From assembly GCF_055900595.2 (NCBI RefSeq), contig NZ_CM148325.1: a stretch of 64,000 nt of DNA. One strand, 5' to 3'. Below, piece by piece: positions 2,778 to 7,721 of this stretch (within the stretch, counting starts at the first letter, position 1; each line of letters starts with the position of its first letter). Under the pieces are notes generated by a model. The model searched no databases, was not told where the DNA came from, and was given only the letters and a program-made list of their open reading frames with translations. The position numbers and the translations under genes are program-made.

Positions 2778-2795
2778 TCCACTAATATGGCCTTT

Positions 2796-4949
2796 ATGCT
2801 AAGTCCTTTGCTCAAACGCTATACCTGGAACAGCGCCTGGCTGTATTACGCGCGTATTTTTATTGCGCTTTGTGGAACCACAGCGTTTCCGTGGTGGCTG
2901 GGTGATGTAAAACTGACGATTCCGCTGACGCTGGGGATGGTGGCAGCGGCGCTGACCGATCTCGATGACCGGCTGGCGGGACGTTTGCGTAACCTCATCA
3001 TTACGCTGTTCTGCTTTTTTATCGCCTCGGCCTCAGTAGAATTGCTGTTTCCCTGGCCCTGGCTATTTGCAATTGGTTTAACGCTCTCTACCAGCGGCTT
3101 CATTTTGCTCGGCGGTCTGGGTCAACGCTATGCAACAATTGCCTTCGGTGCGTTACTGATCGCCATTTACACTATGTTGGGGACGTCACTGTATGAGCAC
3201 TGGTATCAGCAGCCGATGTATCTGCTGGCCGGTGCCGTCTGGTACAACGTCCTGACACTTATTGGTCATCTACTGTTCCCGGTCCGCCCGTTACAGGACA
3301 ACCTGGCGCGTTGCTATGAACAACTGGCGCGTTATCTTGAGCTAAAGTCGCGCATGTTTGATCCTGATATTGAAGATGAAAGCCAAGCACCGCTGTACGA
3401 TTTGGCTCTCGCCAACGGACAGCTGATGGCGACATTGAATCAGACGAAACTCTCGCTGCTGACCCGTTTACGTGGCGATCGTGGTCAACGGGGAACGCGT
3501 CGCACGCTGCATTATTACTTTGTCGCGCAGGATATTCACGAGCGTGCCAGCTCTTCTCATATTCAGTATCAAACATTGCGTGAACATTTTCGCCACAGCG
3601 ACGTGCTGTTCCGTTTTCAGCGACTGATGTCGATGCAGGGCCAGGCGTGCCAGCAACTGTCACGCTGTATTTTGCTGCGTCAGCCTTATCAACATGATCC
3701 GCATTTTGAGCGCGCTTTTACGCATATTGATGCTGCGCTGGAGCGGATGCGCGATAACGGCGCGCCTGCCGATTTACTCAAAACACTGGGATTTTTGCTG
3801 AACAATTTACGCGCTATTGATGCCCAACTGGCAACAATTGAATCAGAACAGGCCCAGGCACTGCCCCATAATAATGACGAAAATGAGCTCGCTGATGACA
3901 GCCCGCACGGATTGAGTGATATCTGGCTGCGTCTTAGCCGTCACTTCACACCGGAATCCGCCCTCTTCCGTCATGCGGTAAGAATGTCGCTGGTGTTGTG
4001 CTTCGGCTACGCCATCATTCAGATAACCGGAATGCATCACGGGTATTGGATCTTGCTGACAAGTTTGTTTGTCTGCCAGCCAAACTATAACGCCACGCGC
4101 CACCGCCTGAAGTTAAGGATTATTGGTACGCTGGTAGGTATCGCCATTGGCATTCCTGTGCTGTGGTTTGTGCCGTCACTGGAAGGGCAGCTGGTGCTGC
4201 TGGTTATTACCGGCGTGCTCTTTTTTGCCTTCCGTAACGTGCAATATGCCCATGCAACGATGTTCATCACACTTTTGGTGCTACTTTGTTTTAACTTGCT
4301 GGGTGAAGGTTTTGAAGTGGCGTTACCTCGCGTAATCGATACGCTGATTGGTTGTGCCATTGCGTGGGCGGCGGTGAGCTACATCTGGCCTGACTGGAAG
4401 TTTCGCAATCTGCCGCGCATGCTCGAACGTGCCACCGAGGCCAACTGTCGCTATCTCGATGCCATACTGGAGCAATACCATCAGGGGCGTGATAACCGTC
4501 TGGCGTATCGTATTGCCCGCCGCGATGCACACAACCGTGATGCTGAACTGGCGTCGGTGGTATCAAATATGTCCAGCGAGCCGAACGTTACCCCGCAAAT
4601 TCGCGAGGCCGCGTTTCGGTTGCTGTGCCTTAACCATACGTTTACCAGCTATATCTCAGCCCTCGGTGCTCACCGGGAGCAGTTAACTAATCCTGAAATT
4701 CTGGCGTTTCTTGATGACGCAGTTTGCTATGTTGATGACGCGCTACATCATCAACCTGCTGATGAAGAACGCGTCAATCAGGCATTAGCTGACCTGAAAC
4801 AGCGGATGCAGCAACTTGAACCACGGGCAGACAGCAAAGAACCTCTGGTCGTACAACAAGTCGGGTTATTGATTGCATTACTGCCAGAGATTGGTCGTCT
4901 GCAACGCCAGATTACTCAAGTTCCGCAGGAAACTCCTGTTTCGGCGTAA
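2796..4949 (+). CDS. yccS: Putative inner-membrane efflux/transport protein YccS
   Basis: ORF 2787..4949; start set at ATG 2796 (MLSPLLKRYTWNSAWLYYARIF...) for 717 aa; multi-TM hydrophobic segments. Confidence 0.9.
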   Translation: MLSPLLKRYTWNSAWLYYARIFIALCGTTAFPWWLGDVKLTIPLTLGMVAAALTDLDDRLAGRLRNLIITLFCFFIASASVELLFPWPWLFAIGLTLSTSGFILLGGLGQRYATIAFGALLIAIYTMLGTSLYEHWYQQPMYLLAGAVWYNVLTLIGHLLFPVRPLQDNLARCYEQLARYLELKSRMFDPDIEDESQAPLYDLALANGQLMATLNQTKLSLLTRLRGDRGQRGTRRTLHYYFVAQDIHERASSSHIQYQTLREHFRHSDVLFRFQRLMSMQGQACQQLSRCILLRQPYQHDPHFERAFTHIDAALERMRDNGAPADLLKTLGFLLNNLRAIDAQLATIESEQAQALPHNNDENELADDSPHGLSDIWLRLSRHFTPESALFRHAVRMSLVLCFGYAIIQITGMHHGYWILLTSLFVCQPNYNATRHRLKLRIIGTLVGIAIGIPVLWFVPSLEGQLVLLVITGVLFFAFRNVQYAHATMFITLLVLLCFNLLGEGFEVALPRVIDTLIGCAIAWAAVSYIWPDWKFRNLPRMLERATEANCRYLDAILEQYHQGRDNRLAYRIARRDAHNRDAELASVVSNMSSEPNVTPQIREAAFRLLCLNHTFTSYISALGAHREQLTNPEILAFLDDAVCYVDDALHHQPADEERVNQALADLKQRMQQLEPRADSKEPLVVQQVGLLIALLPEIGRLQRQITQVPQETPVSA

Positions 4950-5541
4950 GAGAGTCAGCCCATTCTGCAAGCTCCTGGCGGCGTGCCACCGGGAGCGCAG
5001 CTTCATGAATGCCGATAATGGCCCCTTCAAGCATAAACAGAATCTTTTCTGTCACCAGACTGTTTTGCTGCCGCAGTCGCAACCAACACATTTTTGCCCC
5101 AAGTATACGTAACGCCCGTACATCCTTAATCCCCACCTCCCCGAGTATCGCTTCCAGATGAAAAGACATATTGGGCAAATCTTTCAGTCTTTCCCGGGTA
5201 TTGCGCGTGCTTTTCTCTTTCAGCGCTGCATCGAGAGAATATTTCGACAGACGCACCAGCTTCAGTTGATTTCGCCATAGACTTTCATCAACCCGATAGT
5301 AATTGAGGGTAACGGATCGGCCACACTTTTTATATGTCAGCCAGACAGGCGGATGTTTTACACAGTACTGTGCACTTTGCTCACAAGCCCGAAGATACAA
5401 CTCACCATCAGAAACCATCGCAAACACCGTGTCGTCAACGGTCAGGCTGTAACTACCAAACAATGATCGGTATTCAATTGTGCCCAACGTTGCCAGGTAT
5501 TCTTGTGATTTATAGATCCGCTTATAGGAGAGGCTTTTCAT
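4912..5541 (-). CDS. sxy: Competence regulator Sxy/TfoX
   Basis: 209-aa ORF MKSLSYKRIYKSQEYLATLGTIEYRSLFGSYSLTVDD...; ATG at 5541; 3' end overlaps yccS 3' end by 38 bp. Confidence 0.9.
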   Translation of the reverse strand: MKSLSYKRIYKSQEYLATLGTIEYRSLFGSYSLTVDDTVFAMVSDGELYLRACEQSAQYCVKHPPVWLTYKKCGRSVTLNYYRVDESLWRNQLKLVRLSKYSLDAALKEKSTRNTRERLKDLPNMSFHLEAILGEVGIKDVRALRILGAKMCWLRLRQQNSLVTEKILFMLEGAIIGIHEAALPVARRQELAEWADSLTPKQEFPAELE

Positions 5542-5717
5542 AAAATTCCTTTTAAAATCATAACATAAAAGAATGATTCACATTAACGGATCCGTTAACT
5601 ACGAAAATAGGCAACTTATTCTTAAGGGGCAAGATTAATTTATGTTTTCCCGTCACTAACGACAAAATTTGCGAGGCTCTTTCCGAAAATAGGGTTGATC
5701 TTTGTCGTCACTGGATG

Positions 5718-5737
5718 TACTGTACATCCATACAGTA
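5718..5737. promoter_or_regulatory. LexA operator (SOS box) of sulA
   Basis: TACTGTACATCCATACAGTA, a CTGT-N8-ACAG SOS box 23 bp upstream of the sulA ATG. Confidence 0.85.
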
Positions 5738-5759
5738 ACTCACAGGGGCTGGATTGATT

Positions 5760-7693: not shown

Positions 7694-7721
7694 AAAAACC
7701 CCGCAGCTGCGGGGTTTTTTT
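7694..7721 (+). terminator. Rho-independent terminator of ompA
   Basis: AAAAACCCCGCAGCTGCGGGGTTTTTTT: GC stem CCCCGCAG/CTGCGGGG followed by T7 run. Confidence 0.7.

Follow-up and report, generated by a model that had tools for sequence, protein, structure and literature searches.

We analyzed a stretch of 64,000 nucleotides (nt) of Escherichia coli chromosomal DNA (NCBI RefSeq assembly GCF_055900595.2, contig NZ_CM148325.1), hereafter the window, in which the gene order is yccS, sxy, sulA and ompA. The element examined is a perfect palindrome of 16 base pairs (bp), hereafter the dyad, in the divergent spacer between sxy (also named tfoX) and sulA. E. coli has a working DNA-uptake regulon under Sxy, and no natural condition is known to turn sxy on. 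The results indicate that the dyad is more likely a DNA-level element of the sxy promoter than a hairpin in the sxy leader. The features of the region are as follows:

4912-5541, minus strand: sxy (tfoX) coding sequence, 209 amino acids, annotated as CRP-S regulon transcriptional coactivator Sxy
5542-5759: sxy-sulA divergent spacer, 218 bp
5583-5598: palindrome TTAACGGATCCGTTAA, perfect 8 + 8 bp, 16 bp in total, read from the sequence
5718-5737: sulA LexA box TACTGTACATCCATACAGTA, inside the spacer
5760, plus strand: ATG of sulA

A preliminary description of the window had placed the palindrome 42–57 nt upstream of the sxy start codon, in a 218-bp spacer shared with the sulA LexA box, and this location is exact, given that the sxy ATG lies at 5541 on the minus strand. 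The symmetry ends at 16 bp (5582 and 5599 are unpaired). The dyad contains a BamHI site, GGATCC (5588–5593), and a Dam site, GATC (5589–5592), which correspond to positions +4 to +9 and +5 to +8, respectively, of the promoter P1 described below. The exact 16-mer is present as a single copy in the window, even when two mismatches are allowed. Using first-order Markov simulations of the window, we obtained 1.3 ± 1.1 perfect unspaced palindromes of at least 16 bp, compared with two observed, and 70% of the simulated windows carried at least one. The bare palindrome is within chance expectation, its conservation and position exceed chance, and the case for function therefore rests on the latter two.

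The BamHI site gives the dyad a superficial resemblance to a linker, although the flanks had been described as native. Comparison with complete E. coli genomes bore this out: a 321-bp region was matched by 5425 of 5426 genomes, and the 60 nt centred on the dyad showed 100% identity in 5060 of them, K-12 included, the other 364 genomes carrying about one base difference somewhere within those 60 nt. No base of the dyad differs among K-12-like, O157, Nissle and APEC strains. On the K-12 chromosome it occupies 1,021,081–1,021,096, and its GATC 1,021,087–1,021,090. The palindrome is native and part of the E. coli sxy promoter; a cloning linker or assembly artefact with a BamHI site is excluded as the explanation, as 5424–5425 of the 5426 genomes carry the dyad and at least 12 other genera have it at the corresponding place in this promoter. 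In one record, NZ_CP148034.1 (strain NH-21), only bases 119–321 of the query matched, at two places, and the position of the break, inside the CRP-S site described below, suggests an insertion or rearrangement within that site. Four matches to the sxy-sulA spacer lay on plasmid-labelled records of the E. coli genome collection.

Overlap of the dyad with the P1 transcription start

A Cappable-seq study of strain EDL933 lists sxy starts at 1237886 and 1237932 (PMC10469882, supplement), and supplementary file 6 of the same study gives distances to the ATG of 55 for K-12 (RegulonDB v10.5) and of 55 and 9 for EDL933. Mapped onto the sequence, EDL933 position 1237886 is the first A of TTAACGG, with the ATG at 1237941. 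A start at the AA of TTAACGG had first been predicted from spacing and a sigma-70 scan, and was then matched by these published starts. In window coordinates, the features of this promoter, P1, are as follows:

5596, minus strand: P1 start of sxy, first A of TTAACGG, 55 nt upstream of the ATG
5604-5609, minus strand: P1 -10 element TATTTT (TATGTT in some genera), ending 8 nt before the start
5627-5632, minus strand: P1 -35 element TTGCCC (TTGCCG or TTGCTC elsewhere), with a 17-bp spacer
5610-5618, minus strand: conserved block TAAGTTGCC inside the P1 spacer, with an identity of 0.7–1.0 versus 0.1–0.6 in the other spacer half
5667-5688, minus strand: published CRP-S site, sense strand TTTCGGAAAGAGCCTCGCAAAT, centred at -81.5 from the P1 start

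Because the start at 5596 is the third base of the dyad, the dyad spans positions –2 to +14 and is centred at +6.5. The P1 start thus lies within the dyad, 14 of whose 16 bases are transcribed, and an overlap with the core promoter and start is confirmed. The dyad had been assigned to the leader/promoter region of sxy; the promoter part of this assignment stands, and the mapped starts at –55 locate the dyad more exactly on the transcription start.

We compared the sxy upstream regions of the cryptic Escherichia clades, E. albertii, E. fergusonii, Salmonella, ten Citrobacter, Intestinirhabdus, Enterobacter, Lelliottia, Leclercia, Yokenella, Pseudenterobacter, Phytobacter, Kosakonia and Pseudescherichia. 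Per-base identity was scored against E. coli over 27 taxa, arms and motifs were counted over 28 sequences, and the spacing, promoter, RNAalifold and pair-count tests covered 24 species. The sulA-sxy-yccS arrangement is common to all relatives collected.

In the alignments of sxy promoters, CTTGC is invariant, and TTGCnn-17-TAT(T/G)TT was the best or second-best sigma-70 match in 24/24 species, as scored with an approximate, uncalibrated matrix of our own making. A consensus promoter scan with a threshold of 9/12 found no promoter, P1 scoring 8/12. The successive distances from the sulA –35 element to the CRP-S site, on to TCGCA, on to CTTGC and on to CTAT(T/G)TT were 14, 13, 41 and 23 bp in all 24 species, and the 41-bp stretch is highly diverged in sequence though its length is fixed. 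Farther downstream the distances are variable, namely 15–17 bp from the –10 element to the dyad and 52–56 bp from the dyad to the ATG. The block TAAGTTGCC is not accounted for by the –35 and –10 hexamers and could be the site of another regulator; its GTTGC resembles the CytR octamer GTTGCATT.

The half-sites of the CRP-S site, TTCCG and TGCGA, and the primer sequences were taken from Sondberg 2019 (PMC6728893), who found that Psxy needs the CRP activation region AR1 and not AR2, which indicates class I activation. The centre of the site at –81.5 is a class I position and agrees with these genetics. Sinha & Redfield 2012 stated, with data not shown, that transcription begins elsewhere, at a G lying 115 bp before the ATG (near 5656 in the window). 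That start conflicts with the –55 given in both RegulonDB and Cappable-seq, and it would put the CRP-S site at –12 to –33, which is incompatible with class I genetics; moreover, no sigma-70-like promoter scores there. We accordingly place the start of E. coli sxy at –55, not –115, and treat the latter as unconfirmed. A further promoter candidate upstream, P_A (TTGTCG-17-TAAATT), was rejected: apart from Escherichia, few genera give it a good score, the CRP-S site would fall near –47, and start-site support is lacking. The supplements of the Ettwiller 2016 Cappable-seq, Rend-seq annotation, Shigella M90T start-site and ROSE papers contained no sxy start.

The second EDL933 start defines P2, with the following features:

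5550, minus strand: second sxy start, P2, 9 nt upstream of the ATG (EDL933 Cappable-seq 1237932, in the listed conditions)
5557-5562, minus strand: P2 -10 element TATGAT, from the promoter scan and alignments
5581-5586, minus strand: candidate P2 -35 element TTAATG, overlapping the right arm of the dyad (TTAA)
5547-5551, minus strand: sxy Shine-Dalgarno sequence AAGGA, read from the sequence and aligning across species

The P2 –10 region, TATGATTT, is nearly invariant across the 28 Enterobacteriaceae sequences. The P2 candidate is the third-best promoter match in Escherichia, with an 18-bp spacer, and its –35 element is poorly conserved outside Escherichia. A leader from P2 would have just 9 nt and would truncate the Shine-Dalgarno sequence.

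Conservation of the dyad and folding of the leader

The preliminary description had proposed comparing the region with K-12 and other Enterobacteriaceae. The dyad is present in K-12 and conserved across 27–28 promoters, well beyond E. coli. The idea that it is probably regulatory holds. Sxy proteins are only 58–76% identical outside the E. coli/E. albertii group; the spacer blocks are nearly invariant. Over the 27 taxa, identity per base was 0.7, 0.9, 1, 0.8, 0.9, 1, 1 and 1 in the left arm (mean, approximately 0.91) and 0.9, 0.9, 0.7, 0.9, 0.5, 0.8, 0.9 and 0.4 in the right arm (mean, approximately 0.75), compared with 0.1–0.6 for spacers in the same alignment. At least seven of the eight symmetric positions were kept in 15 of the 28 sequences, five or six in 11, and four or fewer in two. 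Escherichia, Salmonella, one Enterobacter, Leclercia, Yokenella and Phytobacter have a 14-bp core, TAACGGATCCGTTA, without any mismatch, and the same Enterobacter carries a perfect 16-mer in which both outer bases are changed, CTAACGGATCCGTTAG. Among shorter motifs, AACGGAT was kept in 27/28 sequences, GGA in 28/28 and GATC in 25/28.

The GATC of the dyad is one of three conserved GATC sites, the others lying in the sulA –35 element TTGATC (5695–5700) and in codons 9–10 of sxy (5515–5518). In Citrobacter Awk4 and NCU1, both the dyad GATC and the coding-region GATC are lost.

With respect to RNA structure, the P1 mRNA begins 5΄-AACGGAUCCGUUAA, in which only a 4-bp stem is possible (A1-U12 to G4-C9; –1.6 kcal/mol, z = 0.07). 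This stem begins at +1, lies approximately 40 nt from the Shine-Dalgarno sequence and does not touch it. No leader fold was more stable than shuffled sequence in single-sequence folding, the z-scores being 0.31 for the 55-nt leader, 0.17 for the leader with early coding sequence and –0.09 for a hypothetical 115-nt leader. RNAalifold returned 0 consensus pairs in the 24 species. When the pairs of a 7-pair hairpin were counted, 81% of cells were paired, and covariation (0.139) was not above the shuffled mean (0.147); one central pair, equivalent to A2-U11, the second of the 4-bp stem, was broken in 10 of the 24 species. The sole Rfam match was a spurious snoRNA with 21.6 bits, below the gathering score of 36. 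The covariation that had been looked for in an RNA hairpin was therefore absent, and the suggestion of a leader hairpin restricting translation is unsupported, because the start is inside the dyad, the 4-bp stem is weak, covariation does not exceed that of shuffled alignments and the leader folds are no more stable than shuffled sequence. The abstract of a 2015 paper by Jaskolska and Gerdes reportedly gives no evidence that E. coli sxy is controlled at the level of translation.

A long-range pairing of GGAUCCGUU with codons 8–10 was dismissed, since GATC is self-complementary and the Arg-Ile-Tyr codons are conserved. The leader segment at 5566–5577, AUUCUUUU, can pair with the Shine-Dalgarno region at 5546–5556, AAAAGGAA, and GAAUCAU can pair with AUGAUUU; both pairings appear in minimum-energy folds and neither beats shuffles. 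An upstream open reading frame of seven codons, ATGATTTTAAAAGGAATTTTATGA, is present in Escherichia only, and its end overlaps the sxy ATG.

A candidate operator on the P1 start and its alternatives

We consider the dyad a candidate operator for a dimeric DNA-binding protein that would block P1, and assign this reading a probability of roughly 0.4. A perfect 16-bp dyad is centred at +6.5 of a weak, activator-dependent promoter, both of its arms are conserved and its distance to the –10 element holds to within one base. The symmetry and size, with 8 + 8 bp, fit a dimeric DNA-binding protein. A centre near +6, as in the dyad, is the location of steric-block operators, among them lac O1 and many LexA boxes. 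Of the two roles put forward in the preliminary description, a dimeric-regulator operator and a leader hairpin, the predicted operator fits better, and the position from –2 to +14 suits it. A putative homodimeric protein bound at +6.5 would obstruct RNA polymerase both at P1 and at the P2 –35 element. Such a protein might add a negative or signal-dependent input to the positive feedback loop of CRP-cAMP and Sxy, and might help to keep sxy low until a signal arrives. It is conceivable, though on balance we are inclined to doubt it, that a repressor on the sxy start gates the Sxy feedback in Escherichia, Salmonella and related genera, and that its release is the missing trigger of the E. coli competence regulon.

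Known systems allow a comparison. The dyad belongs to the published, positively autoregulated class I-type CRP-S promoter of E. coli sxy, the same locus, whose start, CRP-S site and class I behaviour have already been published (Jaskolska & Gerdes 2015; Sondberg 2019, PMC6728893; start at –55 in RegulonDB). In the texts consulted, the dyad is neither described nor given a role, a full-text literature search for the 16-mer found nothing, and Sinha & Redfield 2012, writing of the sequence upstream of E. coli sxy, mention just 'regions of strong base pairing'. The dyad resembles steric-block operators (lac O1, centred at +11; the sulA LexA box, 120 bp away) in being a perfect dyad of operator size over +1, conserved in orthologous promoters of a gene kept at very low expression. 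In contrast to these operators, it is not known to match an operator consensus, its arms are unequal in conservation, and P1 is active in all conditions tested.

Several observations weigh against an operator. No protein is known to bind the dyad. Nor is the dyad known to match convincingly the operators of CRP, FNR, LexA, PurR, Cra, the LacI family, DeoR or GlpR, or those of MqsA, RcsB, NarL/NarP, ArcA, PhoP, Fur or IHF. Of the two arms, the right is clearly the less conserved: the C. freundii group, Lelliottia, Pseudenterobacter and Kosakonia (including Kosakonia cowanii) have degenerate versions of it, and Pseudescherichia has lost it (TCAACGGATGGCTAAA) but retains AACGGAT. Such unequal conservation of the arms fits a one-sided constraint from the start site. 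Symmetric covariation did not exceed that of shuffled controls, and about one palindrome of 16 bp is expected per window by chance. Furthermore, P1 was detected in all eight Cappable-seq conditions (PMC10469882), and a reporter with a consensus CRP site was highly active without Sxy (Sondberg 2019, PMC6728893). Any repressor would therefore have to be weak, scarce or titrated in laboratory conditions.

The palindrome might instead be incidental, the left arm being kept as the P1 start and first transcribed bases, the right arm for other reasons such as the P2 –35 element or promoter escape, and the symmetry itself being idle. The retention of AACGGAT (left arm and centre) in 27/28 sequences alongside a drifting right arm that Pseudescherichia has lost, the score of TTAATG as a –35 element for the mapped start at –9, the chance expectation of approximately 1.3 such palindromes per window and the lack of excess symmetric covariation all point in this direction. 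However, the right arm, at 0.75, is still far above the true spacers at 0.1–0.6. The P2 –35 element fails outside Escherichia (TTACTG or CTACTG), yet CCGnTA is retained there. It is also unlikely that a palindrome would land by chance exactly on the start and then stay perfect over a 14-bp core in genera with diverged spacers. The first transcribed bases are usually less conserved than the dyad, which again counts against idle symmetry. We regard this explanation as rather doubtful, if by no means far-fetched.

We think it unlikely that the element acts at the 5΄ end of the P1 mRNA, whether as a CsrA site (ACGGA), as a weak anti-Shine-Dalgarno sequence (AUCC) or as a small 5΄ hairpin slowing 5΄-end-dependent decay. 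CsrA recognizes A(N)GGA, which ACGGA at +2 to +6 fits, and pairs of GGA motifs follow a spacing rule of 10–63 nt. GGA at +4 to +6 is the only fully invariant triplet (28/28, versus 25/28 for GATC), and a second GGA is present in the Shine-Dalgarno region in 24/28 sequences, at a spacing of 44 nt in E. coli. The 4-bp stem has +1 as its first base, and the minimum-energy fold for C. youngae joins GGAUCC to the Shine-Dalgarno sequence (z = –1.5). A weak pointer is the inclusion of sxy (b0959) in the 1526-gene union list of genes identified by CsrA CLIP-seq or affected in expression (Potts 2017). Set against this, the stem reaches only –1.6 kcal/mol with a z-score near zero, the equivalent of its A2-U11 pair is broken in 10/24 species, no leader fold beats shuffles and RNAalifold returned no pairs. 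The literature search found no paper linking CsrA to E. coli sxy, and the distance of the dyad is tighter to the –10 element (15–17 bp) than to the ATG (52–56 bp). The ompA-type 5΄ stem-loop stabilizer likewise has a stem from +1 and no unpaired 5΄ nucleotides, but the sxy stem is far too short and weak by comparison and is broken in many species.

In H. influenzae, the sxy leader forms a stem that limits translation (Cameron 2008, PMC2248739), and in V. cholerae, the tfoX 5΄ untranslated region is opened by the small RNA TfoR; in both, an inverted repeat lies upstream of an orthologous, tightly limited gene. A transcript from about –115 could in principle form the full hairpin UUAACGGAUCCGUUAA and limit translation in the same way. 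Sinha & Redfield 2012, who stated the –115 start, also described an Mfold prediction of a stem-loop resembling the ones in H. influenzae and V. cholerae, and the full hairpin in isolation folds at –5.0 kcal/mol. This possibility is nonetheless very unlikely. Two independent sources give the start at –55, and, as described above, the –115 start conflicts with the class I genetics and lacks a sigma-70-like promoter. The leader from about –115, folded over 167 nt, is no more stable than shuffles (z = –0.09), and the pairing partner of the dyad in minimum-energy folds is the coding region, not the dyad itself. The hairpin alone has a z-score of –1.2, is at –2.2 kcal/mol or weaker in 10/28 species, lies 40 nt from the Shine-Dalgarno sequence and shows no covariation. 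Unlike the repeats of these two leaders, the E. coli repeat straddles the start, leaves a 4-bp stem, does not touch the Shine-Dalgarno sequence and does not covary. The dyad is not of the sxy/tfoX leader-stem class, given that three features defining that class failed, and leader-hairpin models from H. influenzae or V. cholerae are not transferable to E. coli.

Least probable among the functional alternatives, and in our judgement highly improbable, is a Dam/SeqA sensitivity of P1 through the conserved GATC at +5 to +8, tying sxy to replication or methylation state: the GATC is kept in 25/28 sequences, two other conserved GATCs flank it and two Citrobacter lost the dyad and coding-region sites together, but GGA and the outer TA..TA are at least as conserved as GATC, which indicates a longer recognition sequence, the conserved Arg-Ile-Tyr codons account for the coding-region GATC, and the literature search found no paper linking Dam, GATC and sxy.

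As a candidate operator, the dyad is a modest but concrete lead on the control of sxy in E. coli. A conserved, symmetric site on the sxy start would offer a short, concrete bait for the missing regulator and a precise target for mutagenesis. A practical point for the cloning of Psxy fragments is that BamHI can cleave them at the native site in the dyad. The Psxy-yfp reporter pES91 was made from a PCR product cut with EcoRI and BamHI (Sondberg 2019, PMC6728893); if the native site was also cut, the fragment in pES91 may end at approximately +5.

The genes flanking sxy and sulA are placed as follows:

2787-4949, plus strand: yccS, from the annotation
7678, plus strand: stop of ompA

The sxy and yccS genes are convergent, and their 3΄ ends overlap by 38 bp (4912–4949), a layout that is the same in all related loci fetched. 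The other palindrome of at least 16 bp in the window, AAAAACCCCGCAGCTGCGGGGTTTTT, is perfect over 26 bp and lies at 7694–7719, just past the ompA stop, where it looks like a bidirectional intrinsic terminator of ompA.

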